Positions 9,138-25,257 of a stretch of 64,000 nucleotides of DNA are shown one piece after another. The notes under the pieces were generated by a model. The model did no database searches. It saw only the letters and a program-made list of their open reading frames with translations, and was not told the origin of the DNA. Location of the stretch: positions 96,760 to 160,759 of the forward strand of contig CAVQVT010000013.1 of NCBI GenBank assembly GCA_963717255.1, written 5' to 3'. Numbering within the stretch: the first letter of the stretch is position 1; each line of letters starts with the position of its first letter. This DNA is from an uncultured Chloroflexia bacterium. Lineage in GTDB: Bacteria; Chloroflexota; Limnocylindria; Limnocylindrales; CSP1-4. A program made the translations under genes and the position numbers.

Positions 9138-11693
9138 TCAGGCGGTCGCGAGCGGCGACTCGATCCGGATCCGCGCGTCCAGCACGACCGCGCCCGTCGG
9201 GAGCACGATCACGGGGTTGCAGTCCATCTCCACGATCTCGGGGTGCGCCTCCACCATCGCGCCGACGCGAAGGAGCACGTCCTCGAGCGATGCCACGTCC
9301 ACCGGCGGGGCACCCCGGTACCCGTCGAGGAGCGGGAACACCGCGAGCGACCGGACGAGCTCCGAGGCGTCCCGGTCCGTGAGCGGCGTGATGCGCACGG
9401 CGACGTCCTTCATGAGCTCCGGCTCGGTCCCGCCGCCGGCGCAGGCGATGACGGGACCGAAGAGCCGGTCGTGCACGACGCCGACCAGCATCTCGACGCC
9501 CCCGGCCACCGTCCGCCGGTCGGCCGTCGCGATCCCGTAGCAGTCGAGGAGGGCGGCGACCTCGTCGGGCCGCAGCCACCCGGACCGGCCGTCCTCGGCG
9601 CCGACGGCGCCGACCGGGAGGGACGATCCGGCCGCCGTCCCGCCCGCGGGGGACTGCGCCTCGTCGGCGCGCGCGAGCGCCGCCGCGATGACCGCGGTGG
9701 CTTCGTCCCCGCGCACGTCCGTGAAGGCCGGGACGGTCCCGGGCGGCGCCGCGCGCCACTCCGCGTATGCCGACGCGTGCGCGAGCGCGCGAACCGCTTC
9801 CTCCGGGTAGCTGAAGACGGGGACGCGCACGCGATCGCCCTGGAGGGCCGCGGGGCCGTCATCCGCGGACATGAACACCGCCAGCACCGGGATCGGCCGC
9901 GGCAGGTCGGCCGCGGCGTCGTGGATCGCCGCCGCCACGTCCTCGGCCCGCGTGCCGAGCGGCGGGACGAAGAGGACGACGAGCGCGTCGATGCCGTCCC
10001 AGGCGGCGAGGGTCTCGATCGCACGGCGGAATGACGCGGGGTCCGCGTCGATCGTGTCCACGGGATTCGTCGTCGCCGCGTCGGCGGGCAGGAAGGCCGC
10101 GAGTGCCGCCCGGACGTCCCCGGGGATCGGGGGCACGGACAGGCCGTCCGCCTCACATGCGTCCGCCGCCAGGATCCCGGGACCGCCCCCGTTCGTCAGG
10201 ATGGCGACGCGCCGCCCTGTCGGCAGGGGCTGGTTCGCGAGGAGGGCCGCCGCGTCGAAGAACTCGCCCAGCGTGTCCGTCCGGACGACCCCAGCCTGGT
10301 GGAAGAGCGCATCCACGGTCAGGTCGGAGGCGCCGATCAGGGCGCCGGTGTGCGATGAGGTCGCCCGTGCGCCGGCCGCCGACCGGCCGCTCTTCACGGC
10401 GATGACCGGCTTCGACCGCCCGACCCGCCGCGCGATGCGGGCGAACTTCCGCGGGTTGCCGAGCGACTCGAGGTAGAGCGCGATCACCGAGCAGGCCGGG
10501 TCGTCCTCCCAGTACTGGAGGAAGTCGTTGCCCGACAGGTCCGCCTTGTTCCCGATCGAGATGAAGCTCGCGAGGCCGAGGCCCAGCCGGTTCGCGTGCT
10601 CGATGATCGCGAGGCCCAGCGCGCCGCTCTGCGAGAGGAAGCCGACCCGCCCCGCGATCGGGAGGGTGGGGGAGAAGGTGGCGTTGAGCCGGACGTCGGG
10701 CTCGAGGTTGATGACGCCCATGCAGTTCGGCCCGACGAGGCGCATCCCCGCCTGGCGGCAGACGGCCACGAGCTCGCGCTGGCGCGCTGCGCCCTCGGCA
10801 CCCACCTCGGCGAACCCGCGCGAGACGACGACGATCGTCCGGACACCCTTCTCCGCGCATGCCCGTGCCGCGTGGATCGTCGCGTCGGCCGGAAGGACGA
10901 CGACCGCGAGGTCCACCGGACCCGGCACGTCGACGACCGAACGGTACGCGGCCACCGACTGCACGACGTCCGCGTTCGGGTTCACCGGGTACACGGGCCC
11001 GGTGAAGCCGCTCATGAGCAGGTTGTGGAAGAGCTCGCCGCCCAGGGTGCCCCGGCGGCGGGACGCGCCGATCACCGCGACCGACGCCGGGTGGAGGAGC
11101 GCGTGGACGGCCGCAGCGGCCGCCGTCTGCTCCCTGCGCTCGAACCGCTCGCGTGCCGGGCCCGTCAGCTCGGTGGGGAACTCCACGATCATCGCGCCCG
11201 GCTCGGCGCGGACGCGGAGCGGGAAGCCACTCGCGCGGAAGACATCGAGCATCCGCACGTTCTCGAGGAGGATCTCGGCGACGAACGTCTCGATCCCGTC
11301 TTCCTGCGCGCGGCGCGCGAGCTCCTCCAGGAGGAGCGTGGCGACGCCGCGACCCTGCCAGTCGTCCGCGACGACGAACGCCACCTCGGCCGAGTCCGGG
11401 CCGAGGCGGTCGTAGCTGCCGTTCGCGACGATCCGGCCGTCCGCCCCCACCTCCGCCACGAGCGAGCAGGACTCCTCCTCGTCGGGTGCGGCCCAGTGGT
11501 GGGCGGGGGCGGTGAAGTCGGTGGAGAGACCGGCGAAGCGCATGCGCCGCGACTCGATGGCGAGCCCCTGGAGGAACGTGACGAGCCCCGCCTCGTCGGA
11601 CGGGCGAGCCGGCCGGATGCGGATCGGCGAGCCGTCACGCAGGATCGTGTCCCGCGCGCGGTCCTGCGACGTGGCGCTCTCCGCTGGCTGCAC
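9138..11693 (-). CDS. pat: Pat-type protein lysine acetyltransferase (N-terminal GNAT + NDP-forming acyl-CoA synthetase domain; shortened ATP-grasp)
   Basis: AEVAFVVADDWQGRGVAT (GNAT), VAVIGAS, RLVGPNCMG, SQSGALG, SIGNKAD, SHTGAL, EMDCNP; GTG start after CAGGAGG. Confidence 0.85.
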   Translation of the reverse strand: MQPAESATSQDRARDTILRDGSPIRIRPARPSDEAGLVTFLQGLAIESRRMRFAGLSTDFTAPAHHWAAPDEEESCSLVAEVGADGRIVANGSYDRLGPDSAEVAFVVADDWQGRGVATLLLEELARRAQEDGIETFVAEILLENVRMLDVFRASGFPLRVRAEPGAMIVEFPTELTGPARERFERREQTAAAAAVHALLHPASVAVIGASRRRGTLGGELFHNLLMSGFTGPVYPVNPNADVVQSVAAYRSVVDVPGPVDLAVVVLPADATIHAARACAEKGVRTIVVVSRGFAEVGAEGAARQRELVAVCRQAGMRLVGPNCMGVINLEPDVRLNATFSPTLPIAGRVGFLSQSGALGLAIIEHANRLGLGLASFISIGNKADLSGNDFLQYWEDDPACSVIALYLESLGNPRKFARIARRVGRSKPVIAVKSGRSAAGARATSSHTGALIGASDLTVDALFHQAGVVRTDTLGEFFDAAALLANQPLPTGRRVAILTNGGGPGILAADACEADGLSVPPIPGDVRAALAAFLPADAATTNPVDTIDADPASFRRAIETLAAWDGIDALVVLFVPPLGTRAEDVAAAIHDAAADLPRPIPVLAVFMSADDGPAALQGDRVRVPVFSYPEEAVRALAHASAYAEWRAAPPGTVPAFTDVRGDEATAVIAAALARADEAQSPAGGTAAGSSLPVGAVGAEDGRSGWLRPDEVAALLDCYGIATADRRTVAGGVEMLVGVVHDRLFGPVIACAGGGTEPELMKDVAVRITPLTDRDASELVRSLAVFPLLDGYRGAPPVDVASLEDVLLRVGAMVEAHPEIVEMDCNPVIVLPTGAVVLDARIRIESPLATA

Positions 11694-11758
11694 GCCGACC
11701 TCCTGCCGGCCCCGGGCCGCGAACCGCGGCCCCCGTCCGGCCATACTGTCACACCACC

Positions 11759-12958
11759 GTGCCTCCGTCCGCTTCGCCCCAGCAGCCGCCGCCCTCGGCC
11801 GCCGATCAGCCGCTCGTCGTCCATGGCCCGGCGTCGCTCGACTACGACTTCGGCCACGACCACCCCTTCACGCCGCGCCGCTTCGGCCCTGGGATCGACA
11901 TGCTCCGGTCCCTCGGGGCGACCGAGTTCGTCGCACCGCGCGAGGCATCCGACGGGGAACTCCGGCGCGTCCACGACCCCGCGTACGTCGCCCTGGTCCG
12001 GATGCTCTCCGACTACCCGGAGGCGGCGGCCCACACCGGCGGCTTCGACGGCCCCGACACGCCGCCGTTCTACGGCATGCACGACGCGGCGGCGACGGTG
12101 GCGGGGGGCTCGCTCGACGCGATGGACCGGATCATCGCGGGCGAGGTGGCGCACGCCTTCCACCCGGGCGGCGGGCTCCATCATGCGATGCGTGCCGCCG
12201 CGAGCGGCTTCTGCATCTACAACGACACGGCGCTCGCGATCGCCCGGGCACGCGACGCCGGCCACCGGGTCCTCTACGTGGACCTCGACGTCCACCACGG
12301 GGACGGCGTCGAGTCCATCTTCTGGGACGACCCGCACGTCCTCACGATCTCGATCCACGAGTCCGGCCTGCACCTGTTCCCCGGGACCGGGTTCGTCGAG
12401 GATCGGGGCGGCCATGGGGCCCCCGGCACGGCGGTCAACATCCCCCTCGACCCCGACACGTCGGACGTCTCCTGGCTGGCGGTCGTGGAGGCCGTCGTCC
12501 CGCCGCTGGCCGAGGCCTTCGAGCCGACCGTGCTGGTGACGCAGAACGGATGCGACAGCCACGTCTTCGACCCACTGGCGCACCTCGGCGTCACGACGGC
12601 GGCGATGTCCCGGGCGGCCCGTCTCCTCGACGGGATCGCGCACGCCCACGCGTCCGGACGCTGGCTCGCCACGGGCGGCGGCGGCTACGACGTCTACCGC
12701 GTCGTCCCCCGGGCGTGGGGGCTCGTCTGGCTGGCCCAGGCGCATCGCGATGTCCCCGACGCGACGCCGGAGGCGTGGCGCGAGCGCTGGGCGGAGGACG
12801 CATCCCGCCGCGGGCGCGTGCCGCTCCCGGCGACGATGCTCGACCCGGCTTCGCTCGTGCGGCCCGAGCCGGCCGGCGTCCTCGAGCGCAACATGACCAC
12901 CGCCACGCGTGCGCTCGAGCACTCACGCGAGGTGCTCGCGGAGCGACGCGGCCGGTGA
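11759..12958 (+). CDS. acuC: Zn-dependent deacetylase, AcuC/HDAC family
   Basis: GGGLHHA, SGFCIYND, DLDVHHGDG, SIHE, GCDSH..DPL, GGGGY. Confidence 0.9.
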   Translation: MPPSASPQQPPPSAADQPLVVHGPASLDYDFGHDHPFTPRRFGPGIDMLRSLGATEFVAPREASDGELRRVHDPAYVALVRMLSDYPEAAAHTGGFDGPDTPPFYGMHDAAATVAGGSLDAMDRIIAGEVAHAFHPGGGLHHAMRAAASGFCIYNDTALAIARARDAGHRVLYVDLDVHHGDGVESIFWDDPHVLTISIHESGLHLFPGTGFVEDRGGHGAPGTAVNIPLDPDTSDVSWLAVVEAVVPPLAEAFEPTVLVTQNGCDSHVFDPLAHLGVTTAAMSRAARLLDGIAHAHASGRWLATGGGGYDVYRVVPRAWGLVWLAQAHRDVPDATPEAWRERWAEDASRRGRVPLPATMLDPASLVRPEPAGVLERNMTTATRALEHSREVLAERRGR

Positions 12959-15675: not shown

Positions 15676-15735
15676 GACGGCCGGGCGGCGGGCCGTCCCG
15701 CTCGGCTCGGCCCCGGGCTTGCCCTCGCCCGATCG

Positions 15736-17368
15736 CTACGTCTCGTCGCCGAGCGACGACGCGTCCGCCTCCGCACCTGCCACGCCGCGCATCCGGCGCA
15801 GGCGCTCGATACGCGCACCGAGCGACGGGTGCGTGGCGAAGATGCCCGGCCCCCGGTCGGAGCCGGCCTTCACCGGGTTGCGGAACCACAGGTGCTGCGT
15901 CCCGCGGTTCGCCGCCGTCGAGCTCGTCCGTGTCGTCCGCGAGCGAGGCGAGCGCCCGCTCCAGACCGATCGGGTTGCGCGTCAGCTCCACGGAGGTCGC
16001 GTCGGCGAGGTACTCGCGCTCGCGGCTCACGGCCGCCTGGACCAGGAGGGAGAAGAGGGGAGCCACGATCCGGAGGACGAACGCGACGATGAGGAGGAAG
16101 AGCCCGACGAGGATCCCGCTCACGAAGGCCGCGATGGTCTCCTTCGCGTCGTCGCCCCCGGTCCAGATGAAGGCGCCGTGCCGCCACCCTTCGACGACCA
16201 GCCGGAGGAAGCCGTCGGTCACGAGCGCGACGAGGCCGACGAGGACGGCGACGTAGAGCGCATACCGCGTGTCGTAGTTGCGGATGTGCCCGACCTCGTG
16301 GCCGATGACGCCCTGGAGCTCCTCGCGGTCGAGCCGCGTCAGGAGGCCGCGCGTGACGGCGAGACTCGCGTGCGCCGGGTCCCTCCCCGTCGCGAAGGCG
16401 TTCATGCTGCCGTCGTCGATGACGTAGACGCGCGGCACCGGGACGCTCGCGGCGAGCGAAGCCTCGTCGACGACGTCGAGGAGCACACGGTGCTCGCGCG
16501 CGTCCGCGTGCTTCGCCCCGGCGGTCTCGAGGACGATGTCCGCGCCGAAGCGGTCCGCGCCGAGAGCCGCACCGAGCCCGACTGCCGCCGCGAACGCCGC
16601 TGCGATGAGCGCCGGTGTCGCGCTGAACGTGAGCGAGGCCGTGATGATCTCGGCCACCGCGGCCACGACGCCCACGAGCGTGACCAGCAGCAGGAGGCTG
16701 TTCCTGCGGTTCGCGGCCTGCTGGGCGCGGAAGTCCCTCCGTCCGGCCCGGCGGGCGTCGAGCGCGGCGATCGCGAACGTGACGACGGGGAGGACGACGA
16801 CGAGGGTCACCGCCCACCACGGGAGGTTCTGCGGGAGCGTCCCCTCCTGCACGGTCCGCAGCGCCCACGTGACGAACGTCGCCACGAGGACCAGCGAGAC
16901 GGCCGCGACGAGGATCGCGATGCTGAAGAGCACGGTCGCCGCGAGACGCCCGAGGGGCCCCGGGAGGCGCTCGTCGGTCACGTCGTCCGTCGTCACGGCG
17001 AGCGCGAGGAGCGAGCCCCCGATGATCGCCGCGAGGAGCACGGCGCCGACGAGGTACGCGTCGAGCCGGCCCTGGCCGGCGCGGATCACCGCGACCGCGA
17101 CGAGGAAGAGCAGCCAGAGGAGCGCGGCGCCCGCGAGGGCGCGCCGGATCGACAATGGCCGCGGGTCGATCGCGAGCGCGGCGCCGACGAGCACGAGGAC
17201 CACCGCCGGCACGAGAAGGACGAGCCGGACCTCGGCGGGCGTCTCCTGCGGCGCGGGGTCGACGACGGCGGCCAGGACCCAGCCGACGAGCACGATGCCG
17301 ACGAAGGCAAGAACGGCGGGGACGAGCCGGGTGCCCCACCCGACCGGTCGCCTGCCCAGACCTGACAC
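15736..17368 (-). CDS. htpX: HtpX/M48 zinc metalloprotease with an extra N-terminal membrane region; +1 frameshift near 15918
   Basis: NAFATG, HEVGH, SREREYLADA. The C-terminal ANRGTQHLWFRNP...FATHPSLGARIERL is in a different frame and ends at TAG 15736. Confidence 0.8.
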
Positions 17369-17484
17369 CGGCGCCACCCCCTGCTGAACGCTCGCCCACA
17401 GCCTACGCGACGGGACGAACGGTCTCCGCATCGACGGACGGTCCCCTGCGGGGCGACCCGCGACCGACGCTCTACCATGCCTGC

Positions 17485-20313
17485 ATGGCGCTCTTCGCCG
17501 GAACACCGGCGCTCATCGGCCGCGAGGCCGAGCACGCGGCGGTCGCGACGTTCCTCGACGCCATCGCGCAGGGCCCGGCGGCGCTTGTCCTCACGGGACC
17601 CGTCGGGATCGGCAAGACCACGCTCTGGCGGGCGTTGCTCGCCGACGCGCGCCGCCGCGGCTATCGCACGATGGAGACCCGAGCCGTCGAGGCCGAGGCG
17701 CAGCTGGCGTTCGGCGGCCTCGCCGACCTCCTGGACCCGTCCGTCGACGAGGTCCTGGACGGACTCCCCCCGGCGCAGCGCACCGCCCTCGAGGTCGCGC
17801 TCCAGCGGGTCCCGGTGGCGGACAACGCCCCACCACCGCTCGCCGTGTCCCTCGGCGCACTTGCCGCGATCCGGGCGCTTGCGGAGCGCGCGCCCGTGAT
17901 CGTCGCCGTCGACGACCTGGCATGGCTGGACGGACCATCCGCCCGTGTCCTGGAGTACGTCACGCGGCGCCTCGGCGAGGCACAGGTCGGCTTCGCCCCG
18001 ACGATCCGCGCCGATGCTCCGGACGCGGCGATGCCGGCGGCCGTGTCCGGCTTCGCCGGGCCCGTGGAGCGACTCCACGTCGGGCCGCTCGACCTCGGCG
18101 AGATCGACGCGCTCGTCCGACGTGAGCTCGGTCTCTCGCTGCGACGGCCGGCCCTCGCCTGGATCCTGTCCGGATCGGGCGGCAACCCGTTCCTCGCGCT
18201 CGAGATCGCACGGGCGGTCCAGCGGGGCGGGGTCCAACCCGGGCTCGAGGGCCTCTCGATCTCGACGGCCACGAGCGACCTCGTGCGCGAACGCCTTGAC
18301 GCGCTCCCGGGATCCGTCCGCTGGCCGCTCGCTGCCGTCGCCGCGCTCGGGAGCCCGACGATCGGGCTGGTGACGACAGCCGTCCCCGGCGCCGGCGACG
18401 TGCTCGGGGCCGTGCTGTCCGCCGGAGTGGTGGAGATCGATTCGGGCCGCGTGCGCTTCACGCACCCGCTGCTCGCGGCCGGCGCGTACGGCCGTCTCGA
18501 CCCGGTGGAGCGACGCGGCCTCCATGCCCGGCTGGCGGAGATCGTGGTCGAGCCGGAGCAGCACGCGCGACACCTCGCCCTGTCCGTGGACTCGGCGAGC
18601 GAGGCGGTGGCATCGGAGCTCGACAGGGCGGCGACATACGCGCGGGCGCGAGGCGGAACGGACGCGGCCGCCGAGCTCGAGCTCCAGGCGGCGAGACTCA
18701 CGCGCGTCGACGACCCGGACGCCCTGAAGCGCCGCACGATCGCCGCGGGCGTCTACTTCATCCAGGCCGGCGACCCGACCCGTGCTCGCGCCGTCCTTGA
18801 GGGATACGTCGCAGCGGCCGAGCGCGGAGCCCGGCGAGCGGATGCCCTGCTCGTGCTCGCCGATGCCCGGTCGAGCGACGACTGGCAGGCGAAGGTCGGC
18901 CTCCTGGAGGAGGCGCTCGACGAGGCGGAGGCGGATCATCGACTCCGGAGCCAGATCCTGCAGGCTCTTGCCCAGACGAAGTACCACACGGCTCGCGACG
19001 CGCGCGGCGGGGTGGCGCTCGCCCTCGCGGCGGTGGCCGAGGCGGAATCGCAGGCCGATCCCGCCGCACGATGCTCGGCCTACCTCGCGGCGGTCTTCGC
19101 CCGCCTCAACGCCGGTGAAGACCTCGACGTGGATCTGCTCGAACGCGCGATGGTGCTCGCGCCCCTGGTCGAGCACGAGCGCGTGTTCCTCTGGCCGGCC
19201 TACGCGAAGGCGCTCACGGACGCGTCCTGTGACCGCCTCGACGAGGCGATCACGAGCCTCCTGGACCTTCGTGGGCGTGCTGAGGTGGTCGGCGACTGGG
19301 ACTCGCTGCCGCTCATCTCCGGCAGCCTCGCGTCCGCGGCCTTCCGTGGCGGGGCATGGCGCGAGGCCCAGGGTCACGCGATCGACGCGGAGCGAGGCTC
19401 ACGCCAGAACGGCCAGGCCGAGGGCCTGTCGTTCGCGCTCAGCGTTCGGGCGCTGATCGAGGTCGGTCTCGGGAACGAGGATGCCGGGCGACTGGCGGCC
19501 GAGGAGGGCCTGGCCCTCGCCCGGGAGGTCCGAGGGCGCGCGACTGAGCTGGCCAATCGCGCTGCGCTCGGCTTCCTCGACCTGTCGAGGGGAGACCTCT
19601 CGGCCGCCGAGGCCGAGCTGCGCCTTGCGGTGGAACCGTGGCTCGAGGAAGGGTACCTGAGCCCATCCGTTCTCGAATGGCTCCCGGACTGGGCCGGGGC
19701 GCTCGTCGCCCTCGACCGCGTCGACGAGGCGAACGGACTGCTCGACGCGTTCGAGGAAGTGGCCCTGCGCCTCGATCTCCCGTCCGCCCTCGCCGCGAGC
19801 CTGCGGATCCGCGGGCTGGTGGCCGCGGCCGGCGGGGACGAGGAAGGTTCGATGCGTTCCTTCGTCCGGGCACTCAGCCACCACGATCGTGTCTCCGAGC
19901 CGTTCGAGCGAGGCCGCACGCTCCTTGCCCAGGGTGAGTCCCTCCGTCGCTTCCGACAGCGGGGCCGCGCACGGGAGGCGCTCGGTGCGGCCGCCGCGGT
20001 CTTCGAGCGTCTCGGCGCACGTCGCTGGCACGAACGCGCGACCGCGGAGCTGGCCCGGACCGGACATCGCGAGGTCGGGGCGTCGCTCACCGCGACCGAG
20101 CGACAGGTGGCTGAGCTCGTTGCGGCCGGCCGGACCAACCGCGAGGTCGCCGAGTCGCTGTTCATGAGCTCGCACACCGTCGAGGCGCACCTGACCCGCA
20201 TCTACCGAAGCCTGGGCGTCCGCGGTCGAACGGAGCTGGCCCGGGCGCTGTCCGCACCGGCGACCGACGGGGGAGGCGCCTCGGGCGCTGCACCGAACGA
20301 GGGGAACGGATAG
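17485..20313 (+). CDS. Large ATP-binding (STAND/AAA) LuxR-family regulator
   Basis: LIGREAE, Walker A GPVGIGKTT, VDDLAWLD, GGNPFLA, RFTHPLL, TPR-like middle, C-terminal LuxR HTH; TACCAT -10 just upstream. Confidence 0.92.
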   Translation: MALFAGTPALIGREAEHAAVATFLDAIAQGPAALVLTGPVGIGKTTLWRALLADARRRGYRTMETRAVEAEAQLAFGGLADLLDPSVDEVLDGLPPAQRTALEVALQRVPVADNAPPPLAVSLGALAAIRALAERAPVIVAVDDLAWLDGPSARVLEYVTRRLGEAQVGFAPTIRADAPDAAMPAAVSGFAGPVERLHVGPLDLGEIDALVRRELGLSLRRPALAWILSGSGGNPFLALEIARAVQRGGVQPGLEGLSISTATSDLVRERLDALPGSVRWPLAAVAALGSPTIGLVTTAVPGAGDVLGAVLSAGVVEIDSGRVRFTHPLLAAGAYGRLDPVERRGLHARLAEIVVEPEQHARHLALSVDSASEAVASELDRAATYARARGGTDAAAELELQAARLTRVDDPDALKRRTIAAGVYFIQAGDPTRARAVLEGYVAAAERGARRADALLVLADARSSDDWQAKVGLLEEALDEAEADHRLRSQILQALAQTKYHTARDARGGVALALAAVAEAESQADPAARCSAYLAAVFARLNAGEDLDVDLLERAMVLAPLVEHERVFLWPAYAKALTDASCDRLDEAITSLLDLRGRAEVVGDWDSLPLISGSLASAAFRGGAWREAQGHAIDAERGSRQNGQAEGLSFALSVRALIEVGLGNEDAGRLAAEEGLALAREVRGRATELANRAALGFLDLSRGDLSAAEAELRLAVEPWLEEGYLSPSVLEWLPDWAGALVALDRVDEANGLLDAFEEVALRLDLPSALAASLRIRGLVAAAGGDEEGSMRSFVRALSHHDRVSEPFERGRTLLAQGESLRRFRQRGRAREALGAAAAVFERLGARRWHERATAELARTGHREVGASLTATERQVAELVAAGRTNREVAESLFMSSHTVEAHLTRIYRSLGVRGRTELARALSAPATDGGGASGAAPNEGNG

Positions 20314-20403
20314 GGGTTCCCACGATATCGCCGCACAGCTCGCGATCCGATGATCGGTGACGTCGGAAGACCGACCTTCATGGATCGAACAGGAGCGTGC
20401 GAG

Positions 20404-20937
20404 ATGGACCAGATCAGCAGGATGCGCGACCGGCGGTCGAACCTGGTGCCGGTCGGAGTGGCCGGGATCGTCGTGGCGGGCGCACTCGTCGTGGGCGCGT
20501 TCGCCGCCGGCGCCGGCACGGCCGGGCGCGCTGCCGTGGCACCCGCGACCGCCGGGACCGCCGCGGCCGCTCCCGCAGCACCCGCGGCCGGCTCGGTCGC
20601 GTCGCGCCTCGACAGCGAGTACCTCCGGCGGATCGCGCAGGGCTGGACCGCGGCCGCTCCCGCTGCGGCCGCACCCGCGGCCGGCTCGGTCGCGTCCCGC
20701 CTCGACAGCGAGTACCTCCGGCGGATCGCGCAGGGCTGGACCGCCGGGACCGCTGCGGCCGCTCCCGCGGCACCCGCCGCCGGCTCGGTCGCGTCCCGCC
20801 TCGACAGCGAGTACCTCCGGCGGATCGCGCAGGGCTGGACCGCGGCCGCTCCCGCTGCGGCCGCACCCGCCGCCGGCTCGGTCGCGTCGCGCCTCGACAG
20901 CGAGTACCTCCGGGGGATCGCGCACGGCTGGAAGTAG
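20404..20937 (+). CDS. Secreted or membrane-anchored protein with four tandem GSVASRLDSEYLRRIAQGW cores
   Basis: AGGAG RBS; N-terminal basic + hydrophobic segment; cores start at 20590, 20683, 20782 and 20875, separated by Ala/Pro linkers. Confidence 0.8.
   Translation: MDQISRMRDRRSNLVPVGVAGIVVAGALVVGAFAAGAGTAGRAAVAPATAGTAAAAPAAPAAGSVASRLDSEYLRRIAQGWTAAAPAAAAPAAGSVASRLDSEYLRRIAQGWTAGTAAAAPAAPAAGSVASRLDSEYLRRIAQGWTAAAPAAAAPAAGSVASRLDSEYLRGIAHGWK
20549..20932 (+). repeat. In-frame coding tandem repeat (93/99-bp units forming a 192-bp higher-order duplication)
   Basis: Unit spacings of 93, 99 and 93 bp; few differences between units, mostly synonymous. Confidence 0.9.
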
Positions 20938-20952
20938 CCCGACACGGCCGGC

Positions 20953-20990
20953 GAAGGGTCGGCACCGCTCGTCCCCGGTGCCGACCCTTC
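20953..20990 (+). terminator. Stem-loop after the repeat-protein gene
   Basis: gaagggtcggcaccg-N8-cggtgccgacccttc, a perfect 15-bp stem. Confidence 0.7.
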
Positions 20991-20996
20991 ATCGCT

Positions 20997-21125
20997 GAAC
21001 CGGGCCTTCTGTGGGCGGTCCGCGGTGCCGGCGGCAGCATCGGCGTGGCGACCCGCTTCCCGGCCCGGGTCCACGACCTGCCGTCCATCTACGGCGGGAT
21101 GCTCGTCCTGCCGGGGACCCCCCGG
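20997..21125 (+). pseudogene. Fragment of an FAD-binding (VAO/BBE-family) oxidoreductase
   Basis: Translates as EPGLLWAVRGAGGSIGVATRFPARVHDLPSIYGGMLVLPGTP, like the family's LFWALRGGGGNFGVVTRF motif; no start codon or remaining gene. Confidence 0.65.
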
Positions 21126-23055: not shown

Positions 23056-25257
23056 ATGTCCCTGCTCCGTCGCATGGAGAAGCTCCAGCAGGAGGCTGCC
23101 GCGCGCGCGGCCGATGCCAGCGCGGCCGAGACGCCGACTCTGCCGGCCGACACGCTGGCCGGCGATCCGGCGGCGGTCGCCGCTCCGGCGGCGCTGCCAG
23201 CCGACCCGGATGCTGCCGGGCCGGGCGAGTCGGATCCCGCCCCGCGCTCCGCTCTCGCTCCCGCAGCGGCGGATCCCGCACCCGCTCCGGCCGCGCCATC
23301 GCCCCCGAGCGCGGCCGCGGTCATCGCTGCAGCCGCGGCGGCGGCCACCGCCGCCGCGACGGGCGCGCCACCCCCCGCCCCTCCGACCTCTGCCGGGACC
23401 GCGCCGGGCACGCCCGCCGTCCTGCCCGCCGCACCCCAGGCCGCGCGGATGGCGGCCCGATCCGCGGTCCGCGAGGACATGCTCCGCGACGTCCGCATCC
23501 GCCTCCGGACGGAGGCGGCACGCTCGTCGGCATCCCTGGCGGCCGTCGCGGGACCGGACCTCCGCGGTCGCATCGAGGCGATGGTGGACCGGGTCATCGG
23601 CCTCAGCGGGTACGCGGTCACCCGCGACGAGCGGCTCCGCCTGATCGAGGACATGGTCGCCGGGATCCAGGGCTTCGGGCCCATCGAGACGTTCCTGAAG
23701 GACGAGACGGTCACCGAGGTCATGGTCAACGGCCCCGACCAGATCTACATCGAGCGGGCCGGGAAGATCCATCTGACGGACGCCGCCTTCCTCAGCGACG
23801 ACCACGTGCGGCAGATCATCGACCGGATCGTCAGCCCGATCGGCCGGCGGATCGACCAGTCGAGTCCCCGGGTGGACGCCCGCCTACCCGACGGCTCGCG
23901 CGTCAACGTCATCATCGAGCCGCTCTCCCTCGTCGGACCCGTCATCACCATCCGGAAGTTCTCCGCCCACCCGTACACCGTCGACGACCTCGTCCGGTTC
24001 GGGACCGCCACGGCTGAGATGTTCGACTTCCTGCGCGTCTGCGTGGAAGCCCAGTTGAATATCTTCGTGTCCGGCGGGACCGGGTCGGGGAAGACCACGA
24101 CCCTCAACGTGCTCTCATCCTTCATCCCGGAGGATGAGCGGATCGTCACCATCGAGGACGCGGCCGAGCTGCAGCTCCGACAGATGCACGTCGTCACGCT
24201 GGAGAGCCGCCCTCCCAACCTGGAGGGCCTCGGCGAGATCACGATCCGCGACCTCCTGCGCAACGCGCTCCACATGCGCCCGGACCGGATCATCGTGGGC
24301 GAGTGCCGGGCGGGCGAGGCGCTCGACATGATCCAGGCGATGACAGTCGGGCACGAGGGCTCCCTCTCGACCGGCCATGCGAACAGCCCGGCGGACATGC
24401 TCCGGCGCCTCGAGACCATGGTCCTCATGGCGGGGGTGGACCTCCCGCTCCGGTCCATCCGCGAGCAGATCGCCTCCGCGGTCGACGTGATCGTCCACAC
24501 CGCCCGCCTGAAGGACGGCTCCCGGAAGGTCGTCAACATCACCGAGGTGTACGGGATCGAGGACGATCGCATCCTCCTGCAGGACGTCTTCGCCTTCCAA
24601 CAGACCGGCATGCGGGACGGACGGGTCGAGGGCGCGCTCCTGCCGACCGGGATCCGGCCGACCTTCATGGGGAGGTTCAAGGCGAGCGGGATCCAGCTGC
24701 CGCCGGGCGAGTTCGGCATCCCCGCGTTCGACCCATCCCGCCCCGGCCAGGTCCGCGCCGGCAAGTCGCGCTGGGCGAGCGAGGCCGCCACGCAGGACGG
24801 GAAGCCCGCGCCGGTCACCGTCGGGCATGGACGGGTCGCGAAAGCCGGCGGCATGGTCTACGTCTCCGCGATGGGACCGGTCGACCCGGAGACCGGGCAG
24901 CTCGTCGGGGTCGGCGTCCGGGATCAGACCGTCCAGTGCATGCGCAACGTCCAGGCGCGCCTGGAGGCCGAAGGAAGCGGGCTCGACAGGATCGTCTGGG
25001 CGAGCTGGGCGCTGCGCGACCCGTCCGACTTCGACGCGTTCGACGAGGAGTGGGTGCGCTGGTTCCCGGGCGACGCACCCGTCGGCCAGGCGACGCTCAT
25101 GACGCCGGCGCATCGCCGCGCCGGCTTCCGGGTCTCCATCGGCGTCATCGCGCAGGCGGACGCTGATCCGGGCCCGCGGGCGGCCGGGGATCCGGCCCCC
25201 GGCGACGCGCCGGCCGCGAGGACGTCGCACTCGGGGACGCCGCGCCGGAAGCGGTGA
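23056..25257 (+). CDS. cpaF: TadA/CpaF-family secretion ATPase with Ala/Pro-rich N-terminus and C-terminal Rid (YjgF/UK114)-like domain
   Basis: EVMVNGP, VDARLPDGSR, GGTGSGKTT, TIEDAAEL, MRPDRIIVGE; tail MVYVSAMGPVDPETG..QTVQCMRNV..DFDAFDEEW..WF. Confidence 0.88.
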   Translation: MSLLRRMEKLQQEAAARAADASAAETPTLPADTLAGDPAAVAAPAALPADPDAAGPGESDPAPRSALAPAAADPAPAPAAPSPPSAAAVIAAAAAAATAAATGAPPPAPPTSAGTAPGTPAVLPAAPQAARMAARSAVREDMLRDVRIRLRTEAARSSASLAAVAGPDLRGRIEAMVDRVIGLSGYAVTRDERLRLIEDMVAGIQGFGPIETFLKDETVTEVMVNGPDQIYIERAGKIHLTDAAFLSDDHVRQIIDRIVSPIGRRIDQSSPRVDARLPDGSRVNVIIEPLSLVGPVITIRKFSAHPYTVDDLVRFGTATAEMFDFLRVCVEAQLNIFVSGGTGSGKTTTLNVLSSFIPEDERIVTIEDAAELQLRQMHVVTLESRPPNLEGLGEITIRDLLRNALHMRPDRIIVGECRAGEALDMIQAMTVGHEGSLSTGHANSPADMLRRLETMVLMAGVDLPLRSIREQIASAVDVIVHTARLKDGSRKVVNITEVYGIEDDRILLQDVFAFQQTGMRDGRVEGALLPTGIRPTFMGRFKASGIQLPPGEFGIPAFDPSRPGQVRAGKSRWASEAATQDGKPAPVTVGHGRVAKAGGMVYVSAMGPVDPETGQLVGVGVRDQTVQCMRNVQARLEAEGSGLDRIVWASWALRDPSDFDAFDEEWVRWFPGDAPVGQATLMTPAHRRAGFRVSIGVIAQADADPGPRAAGDPAPGDAPAARTSHSGTPRRKR

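Follow-up and report, generated by a model that had tools for sequence, protein, structure and literature searches.

Background

STAND/LAL regulators are common and their ligands are mostly unknown; AfsR-AfsS of Streptomyces is the only well-studied case in which a small repeat protein is encoded next to the regulator. We studied a locus of similar layout in a 64,000-nt stretch of DNA, called here the window, from an uncultured Chloroflexia bacterium (GenBank assembly GCA_963717255.1, contig CAVQVT010000013.1, positions 96,760 to 160,759): a gene for a STAND/LAL regulator with a LuxR-type DNA-binding domain, followed by a gene for a small repeat protein. The two genes form a conserved module, undescribed in a limited open-access literature search; a tryptophan-ending helix is present in its small protein in one to four copies. 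By analogy, the module looks like an exported counterpart of AfsR-AfsS.

The available part of PMC10832544 describes afsS as lying immediately downstream of afsR and being activated by AfsR; its product contains 2-5 repeats and has low identity between species, and it binds AfsR through these repeats, more strongly when more copies are present (PMC10832544). Judged by layout, this is the closest described system. In both cases a STAND activator gene precedes a small gene whose product is a repeat-only protein of variable copy number (in AfsS, with poor conservation beyond the repeats), although at our locus the activation would rest on a conserved box in the DNA (see below). The DNA-binding domain of AfsR is an N-terminal SARP domain, whereas that of the window regulator is a C-terminal LuxR/GerE domain; AfsS is cytoplasmic, without an export or anchor segment, whereas the window repeats are predicted to lie outside the cytoplasm; the repeat motifs are unrelated; and AfsR acts on several targets, compared with the one box detected in the window genome.

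A second group for comparison is RRNPP. According to the available part of PMC10075063, receptor and peptide diversify together in RRNPP cassettes (Rap-Phr, PlcR-PapR, AimR-AimP), the active peptide sits at the propeptide C-terminus and intragenic duplications are frequent in propeptide genes. Against the five RRNPP criteria of that source, our locus failed three, namely propeptide size, receptor size and detectable tetratricopeptide repeats (TPRs), and agreed in the adjacency of the two genes; as to Sec export, a basic tail, a hydrophobic segment and an AxA motif are present, with a hydrophobic run long enough for an anchor (PMC10075063). The likeness lies in a cytoplasmic regulator encoded beside a small gene for a predicted exported peptide, with a 90-nt spacer in 5/5 loci. 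The differences are a receptor of 942 aa instead of 250-500 aa, with a P-loop NTPase and no detectable TPR; a small protein of 100-177 aa (criterion 10-100 aa) in which a helix of 13-20 aa, instead of a peptide of 5-10 aa, is the conserved unit; and a lineage other than Bacillota. Beyond the RRNPP work, the limited literature search found no described pair of a STAND-LuxR regulator and an exported peptide.

Multi-core peptide precursors such as yeast alpha-factor and cyanobactin PatE carry several core copies in one exported precursor, in variable copy number. The window family differs from them in having no linked processing-site motif, protease or modifying enzyme, and in its mostly conserved spacers.

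Results

Regulator and small gene as a conserved pair

The window regulator has the N-terminal P-loop NTPase (Pfam AAA_16, PF13191; E 5.9e-16, 59.9 bits against a cut-off of 32.6) and the C-terminal GerE helix-turn-helix (PF00196; E 1.2e-15) by which LAL or STAND-LuxR proteins are recognized; GerE is its only domain that matched solved structures. The arrangement of these domains around a long middle, in a protein of ~900-950 aa, is also that of the LAL group. The middle part, residues 176-862 (~690 aa), matched no Pfam family up to E 5, and no match to SARP or Trans_reg_C was found with Pfam anywhere in the protein. Residues 735-917 showed a weak MalT match (E 1.9e-6), with a score far under the family cut-off (26 vs 537 bits). 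The locus also departs from the LAL group in having neither a small-molecule pathway nor a biosynthetic cluster beside it, the predicted target being a single small exported protein.

Regulator orthologs of 60-74% identity (tblastn) were located directly upstream of the small gene in genomes G335, G002, G326 and G143, and a regulator search over 401 genomes added G121 (55%) and G220 (50%), so that orthologs are present in six other genomes at 50-75% identity. In the last two the regulator is followed by a single-core family member ending in ...YSEYLKDMAHGW and by a two-core member ending in ...YSDYLRELSADW, respectively. In a quick maximum-likelihood tree of 30 regulators the seven orthologs, window included, formed a clade with a Shimodaira-Hasegawa-like approximate likelihood ratio test (SH-aLRT) support of 100, and all seven (7/7) had a family member just downstream. 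The rows G217 and G224 of the tree and the box list, from genomes flagged as unpublished, were kept as "other" rows, and no conclusion rests on them. Pfam scans of 45 neighbouring open reading frames (ORFs) in five loci revealed no third shared gene; therefore the regulator and small gene pair is itself the conserved unit. A previous interpretation made from the letters of the window alone (the sequence-only reading) had tied the small gene to the STAND-LuxR regulator and had reported no adjacent enzyme for ribosomally synthesized and post-translationally modified peptides (RiPPs); the first point extends to the whole clade, and the scans of the 45 ORFs gave nothing RiPP-like.

The spacer and its conserved box

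The distance from the regulator stop to the small-gene ATG was exactly 90 nt, in frame, in 5/5 of the closest loci, and the alignment of the five regulator-linked loci showed three conserved blocks within it. The candidate site that the sequence-only reading had placed at the regulator stop, GGGGTTCCCACGAT at 20313-20326, turned out to be the first half of a box conserved at orthologous and paralogous loci (Table 1), its first G being the last base of the TAG stop. Read from the sequences, the box occurs at the stop, or within ~100 nt after it, in roughly 20/30 related regulator loci, among them paralogs with identities as low as 38-45%. With a matrix derived from 11 such sites, the window site scored 30.1 bits and the next best site of the 2.9-Mb, 81%-complete genome 15.5; the regions upstream of the regulator and of a paralogous repeat gene on contig 3 (see below) held no box above 15.5 bits.

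In the available part of PMC9774167 the PAS-LuxR operator, CTVGGGAWWTCCCBAG, sits at the -35 region of activated promoters. The window box, a predicted site, shares with it a GGG(A/G)..T(T)CCC core for a LuxR-type helix-turn-helix; it differs in being one base shorter and followed by a conserved GAT-W-TC, and can also be read as two direct 9-nt repeats. By phylogenetic footprinting we infer that the box is the putative operator of the regulator, which would activate a promoter within the spacer. The small palindrome downstream may be a -10-like promoter element; TCGAGGAT-type blocks resembling it were seen in paralogous loci, and a sigma-70 consensus scan of the region found no promoter. The leader, GGATCGA..GGAG..GTGCGAG-ATG, was conserved in 6/6 loci, including a G326 copy that has no regulator.

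The repeat protein and the growth of its array

The repeat gene is enclosed in an ORF at 20350..20937 (+) and, when read from the ATG at 20404, encodes 177 aa. We took this ATG as the start because a GGAG lies 8 nt upstream, inside the leader block conserved in six loci. The protein has a basic N-tail, a hydrophobic segment at about residues 14-41 with AFA at 32-34, Ala/Pro linkers and four cores, GSVASRLDSEYLRRIAQGWT in three copies and GSVASRLDSEYLRGIAHGWK in the last; its final residue is Lys. The core form of the window is RLDSEYLRRIAQGW, compared with ...SEYLREIARDW at the C-terminus of the family. The core is amphipathic, with a hydrophobic moment of 0.66 (63/2000 shuffles equally high), and near neutral in charge, not cationic.

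Core starts are spaced by 93, 99 and 93 nt, the expected outcome of a 93/99-nt duplication followed by a 192-nt duplication. Tandem Repeats Finder gave consistent periods at 20547-20932: 93 nt in 3.9 copies (90% matches, score 594) and 192 nt in 2.0 copies (95%, score 716). The two 192-nt halves differ at 8 nt, of which 6 are synonymous and 2 non-synonymous, both replacements being in core 4; the copies thus diverged with the coding frame kept. The four-copy count is that of this assembly: contigs of three public short-read runs (X1, X5, X6) break in the array and none spans it, and in the ~12% examined of a raw-read run (X21) no read matched. Those contig pieces that are identical to the window span 20236-20534, 20622-20744 and 20905-21100, and a 461-nt contig from a separate study matches 20113-20573 with 8 differences.

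The hairpin 3' of the gene (76 nt folded) had a dG of -48.8 kcal/mol and a z of -6.5, and shuffles folded as well in 0/200 cases. No U tract was found 3' of it. Strong hairpins also lie 3' of the homologous genes in G002, G335, G326 and G143, and the window hairpin is likely a transcript end or a stabiliser. The sequence-only description of the gene (a 177-aa protein with a signal or membrane segment, its own ribosome-binding site, four cores grown by a 93/99-bp and then a 192-bp duplication, an amphipathic helix as core and a 15-bp hairpin downstream) was in this way borne out by the translation, the conserved GGAG, the agreement of repeat periods with core spacings, the hydrophobic moment and the perfect stem; the hydrophobic segment is also modelled as a helix (see below).

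Table 1 Features of the regulator and small-gene locus; positions are those of the window
Feature	Position	Strand	Description
STAND/LAL regulator	17485..20313	+	942 aa; AAA_16 at residues 10-164, GerE helix-turn-helix at 867-920
Conserved box of ~20 nt	20311..20332	+	TAGGG-N2-TTCC-N2-GAT-W-TC type; begins with the regulator TAG stop
Small palindrome CCGA-N3-TCGG	20347..20357	+	possible -10-like element ~30 nt downstream of the box
Conserved leader with ribosome-binding site	20382..20403	+	GGAG at 20392-20395
Small repeat protein, predicted exported or N-anchored	20404..20937	+	177 aa plus stop
Core 1	20590..20649	+	GSVASRLDSEYLRRIAQGWT
Core 2	20683..20742	+	residues as in core 1; 1 synonymous nt difference
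Core 3	20782..20841	+	DNA identical to core 2
Core 4	20875..20934	+	GSVASRLDSEYLRGIAHGWK; C-terminal, most diverged copy
Hairpin	20953..20990	+	perfect 15-bp GC-rich stem; arms 20953-20967 / 20976-20990

A family of small proteins with tryptophan-ending helices

The window protein alone gave no match as a query against a word-indexed protein database, probably because its Ala/Pro spacers filled the list of candidates. With an alignment of members poorer in repeats as the query, 39 proteins were retrieved from a 5.8-billion-protein collection, and when 1.84 billion cluster representatives were searched exhaustively with an HMMER profile, 52 reached E <=0.001, three of which were set aside as unrelated Cys/Leu-rich repeats. 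Core homologs therefore exist and the gene belongs to a conserved family. All matches were 29-239 aa long; those of the word search were named "hypothetical", with one evident misannotation, and had no Pfam domains. About 50 small-protein clusters carry 1-4 copies of SEYLRxIAxxW, all unnamed. Other resources gave a best score of 0.84 in the ESM Atlas, below the useful range; nothing in NCBIfam for the small proteins but a chance PigA match (E 9e-4); and a match of 14 residues only to DUF6158 (PF19655), at 18.1 bits against a gathering threshold of 26.8.

At the genome level, the first searches revealed a paralogue on contig 3 of the window genome and a two-core homolog in the same-genus G002; their weak matches (E above 1e-3) lacked the motif and were rejected. 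A 20-position core profile run over 401 genomes of the taxonomic family matched clearly only in the window genome (G000), G002, G335, G326 (two genes) and G143. When E values up to 1 were admitted, 139/401 genomes gave matches, most of them by chance; the clearest case was that of the CheW proteins of G321, G370 and G199 (L018, L020, L021), in which ADSEYLRGIAKLG bears a chance nine-residue likeness to the core. In a class-level sample of 401 genomes, E <=0.001 was reached only in G000 and G143, with 0/263 genomes of four other families.

Typical members are 100-112 aa long. The N-terminus M-T/A-Q-L-x-x-T-x-x-R-P is present in 42/73 proteins; after it come a hydrophobic segment, a linker that varies between members and then the repeat units, (T)DRAAI(L/V)..L.SEYLR.IA..W(Y). 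A strict pattern counted two cores in 37 proteins, one in 18, four in 8, three in 6 and none in 4. The window gene, with its Ala/Pro spacers and final Lys, is a recently expanded, atypical four-copy member of a family in which two copies are the norm. After removal of three spurious rows and four duplicates or fragments, 51/69 proteins had Trp as C-terminal residue. Among the 39 proteins with at least two cores, the terminal core invariably (100%) had S, Y and W, with L kept in 97% and E in 92%. The repeat number, whose variation the sequence-only reading had named as a point to check, ranges from 1 to 4 and is polymorphic among close relatives: P0062 matches the G002 homolog almost throughout but has one core instead of two, and differs likewise from the near-identical P0004 (1 vs 2 cores). 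That reading had named homologs with a single core inside a folded domain as evidence that would count against it; in single-core homologs (e.g., G121, P0039, P0063, P0069) the core forms the very end of the protein, behind an unstructured linker, and does not belong to a larger fold.

Some members showed features of their own. The three-core homolog of G335 (L034:6918-7344) is frameshifted between core 2 and core 3, and its database gene call, P0008, continues in the wrong frame. The paralogue on contig 3 of the window genome (190316-191065; locus L012:1207-1956) has a lipobox, VLAAC, and two canonical cores with 2-7 of 60 nt different from the window cores, together with three to four copies of another repeat, SEAQSLAAFRAAERA-like, which appears as FRAGER in P0046 and P0070. 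It has no regulator nearby, and a fasciclin-like ORF, judged by eye, lies downstream. The second family gene of G326 (L033:13515-14003, negative strand) encodes four cores and lies ~5 kb from the regulator-linked copy; it is without box or regulator upstream and has the same block of leader and ribosome-binding site. Between the two G326 copies are genes for an HtrA-like protease (Trypsin_2+PDZ), a GyrI-like protein and an AMP-binding enzyme.

Topology and predicted structure

In 65 family proteins, the 15 residues on the N side of the hydrophobic segment held a mean of 2.03 Lys plus Arg, compared with 0.66 on the C side; the count was higher on the N side in 54 proteins, equal in 9 and lower in 2. 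This excess favours an N-in/C-out orientation, with the cores outside the cytoplasm. An AxA-type motif closes the hydrophobic segment (AFA 32-34 in the window protein) and the uncharged run is long, with a median of 27 residues; judged from these residues, cleavage as a signal and retention as an anchor are both possible. The AlphaFold model of the window protein, made with a 35-row family alignment, had a mean predicted local distance difference test (pLDDT) of 68.8 and a predicted template modelling score (pTM) of 0.24; it showed residues 15-41 as a membrane helix, each core as a helix and the linkers as disordered. A Foldseek search against the PDB gave no match at E 0.001 or better.

Other small-protein classes after paralogous regulators

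A second regulator clade of seven members (SH-aLRT 100) was associated with a different class of small proteins: 5/7 are followed by QEWEARYRQMYP-type proteins (G035, G239, G227, G300 and G109; L059, L060, L064, L067 and L071). These have an N-terminus and hydrophobic segment like those of the SEYLR family, 1-3 copies of a C-terminal motif, and the same box at the upstream regulator. A third class is represented by L052 (G036), where the small anchored protein carries AWLDTLDRFQADPG.FFAAGGFG twice; the G036 regulator is 45% identical to that of the window and lies near clade 1 in the tree. Regulators and small proteins thus co-vary: clade-1 regulators with SEYLR..W proteins, the separate clade with QEWEARYRQMYP (5/7 rows) and one row with the third type. 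The products encoded after the remaining paralogs were larger secreted proteins, a lipoprotein, small cytoplasmic proteins and enzymes.

Neighbouring genes

The sequence-only reading had offered the M48 protease divergent from the regulator as a speculative processing partner. We rejected this candidate: the gene was found in 0/4 orthologous loci, so it is not syntenic, and it is frameshifted in this assembly. The window M48 ORF, together with MarR, a 183-aa ORF and an aquaporin, had no tblastn match at the G335, G002, G326 and G143 loci. This HtpX-type metalloprotease gene (15700-17506, negative strand) encodes a long multi-helix N-terminal extension and is split by the frameshift; the HtpX match breaks off at ~256 of the 298 profile positions, and HLWF..IFATHPSLGARIERLR, the conserved C-terminal part, is read in a different frame, which is either an assembly error or a pseudogene.

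Envelope-stress-type neighbours were seen in 2/5 loci, HtpX in the window and an HtrA-like protease, an extracytoplasmic function (ECF) sigma factor and VanW in G326. The window genome also encodes at least five full-length Opp/Dpp-type binding proteins (PF00496), a capacity for import that would suit the uptake of a peptide ligand. Elsewhere in the window, a 733-aa ORF at 23056-25254 (+) joins a type II/IV secretion ATPase domain (T2SSE, 206-484) to a RidA/L-PSP domain (593-699), either as a fusion or as an ORF run-on in GC-rich DNA. At 9141-12955, a GNAT plus CoA-ligase gene (Pat-like protein acetyltransferase) is divergent from a histone-deacetylase-family gene, and the two may form an acetylation/deacetylation pair.

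Discussion

A proposed regulator-ligand module

We favour, at a probability of roughly 40%, an AfsR/AfsS-like module in which the regulator would induce the small gene and would have as its ligand the repeats that this gene encodes, routed via export. As a first step, the STAND/LAL regulator would bind the box overlapping its own stop and activate a promoter in the 90-nt spacer; such an action on box and spacer is well supported by the comparison of loci. The small gene would be the only recognisable target of the regulator in the window genome, with the reservation that this genome is 81% complete and that weak sites may be missed. As a second step, supported by the sequence, the small protein would insert N-in/C-out by means of its basic tail and hydrophobic segment, with AxA cleavage or anchoring. 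The one to four amphipathic helices (here four), which share the invariant S-E-Y-L...W face, would then be attached by flexible linkers outside the cytoplasm, the last helix usually ending at a free C-terminal Trp. The third step is drawn by analogy with AfsR-AfsS: the Trp-ending helices would be the specific ligand of their clade's regulator in a feedback or signalling loop through the cell exterior, where release of the helices would be followed by uptake or surface sensing and by activation of the regulator. More copies would then provide more ligand per transcript.

Several points weigh against this proposal. A putative uptake or relay step would be needed, because the repeats are predicted outside and the regulator is cytoplasmic. 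Pfam detected no TPR or other peptide-binding domain in the regulator middle. With a single target, the module would be a pure signal without output, which favours an effector role. The inter-core stretch (WYVTAPRTDRAAIL) is also conserved in most family members, Cys pairs flank a core in some (P0003, P0047, P0048), and AlphaFold gave helix-kink-helix units for the two-repeat form at a pLDDT of 85-89; these three features can be reconciled equally with a processed precursor and with a small extracellular protein that folds. Two of the nine genomic family genes (the contig 3 paralogue and the second G326 copy) are not beside a regulator, and larger secreted proteins or enzymes are encoded after other paralogous regulators that share the box; the architecture may be merely that of a regulator plus its adjacent target.

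Alternative explanations

The strongest alternative, a quite possible one if short of probable, is a plain exported effector. The regulator would sense an unrelated cytoplasmic cue, and the whole small protein, anchored or secreted, would act without feedback in the envelope, binding a conserved surface molecule or partner protein multivalently through its Trp/Tyr helices. With a single box in the genome the small protein would be the sole output, and the paralogous regulators with the same box that precede larger secreted proteins, a lipoprotein and enzymes point the same way, but no binding target can be named. The conserved inter-core segments, the two-repeat form with its pLDDT of 85-89 and the subgroup with Cys pairs suit a folded protein; against a fold stand a repeat number free from 1 to 4 even among near-identical proteins, which is unusual for one, the disordered linkers and pTM of 0.24 of the window model and the lack of a structural match in the PDB with Foldseek. 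The contig 3 paralogue, with its lipobox, additional repeat types and no regulator, also speaks for an effector. Envelope-stress-type neighbours fit as well, yet they occur in only two of the five loci (window, G326).

A broader form of the regulator-ligand proposal is peptide signalling through STAND/LAL receptors, from cell to cell or to self, outside Bacillota. Trp-terminated helices released from exported precursors of 1-4 copies would be sensed by the adjacent regulator, and each of several clades in one bacterial family would own a separate peptide class (SEYLR..W, QEWEARYRQMYP, AWLDTLDRFQ...) as a private "language". We consider this rather doubtful.

It is improbable that the small protein is a membrane-tethered co-sensor, whose cytoplasmic N-tail and membrane helix would contact the regulator while the outer helices sense an external ligand and so gate it; MalK gates MalT in a parallel way. 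The conservation of the N-tail M-T/A-Q-L-x-x-T-x-x-R-P in 42/73 proteins, with codons that differ and residues that are kept, and a similar tail in the class-3 proteins of another regulator clade agree with such a contact, but the tail is only ~12-14 residues long and that of the window protein, MDQISRMRDRR, departs from the consensus. The long uncharged run would suit an uncleaved anchor, while the AxA-type motifs at its end suggest cleavage.

The antimicrobial role raised by the sequence-only reading found no support. A multi-core precursor of antimicrobial or surfactant helices, released to kill competitors or alter surfaces, is very unlikely: the helix is amphipathic, present in several copies per precursor and predicted to be exported, but the cores are not cationic, strict conservation of the polar S, E and R argues for specific recognition over lipid activity, and immunity, ABC-export or modifying genes are adjacent in 0/5 loci. 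An assembly artefact or non-coding repeat can be practically dismissed, since, although no independent contig spans the array and the exact window protein was absent from the matches of both protein searches, the copies differ by 6 synonymous vs 2 non-synonymous changes, 100%-identical contig pieces cover the core 1-2 junction and fit nowhere else, and there are orthologs in 6 other genomes and about 50 database clusters of the same architecture.

Significance of the module

The module combines a promoter box of fixed geometry with a tiny exported repeat protein that bears an invariant recognition face, and distinct classes of such proteins go with distinct regulator clades. It is a compact system: one regulator, one box and one 13-20-aa peptide. 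Should the plain effector be true, the small proteins would represent an unnamed envelope-protein family under unusually dedicated control. The regulator-ligand proposal opens the question of whether STAND transcription factors may use genetically encoded peptides as ligands and, with it, that of peptide signalling by the uncultured sediment and wetland bacteria of this lineage.

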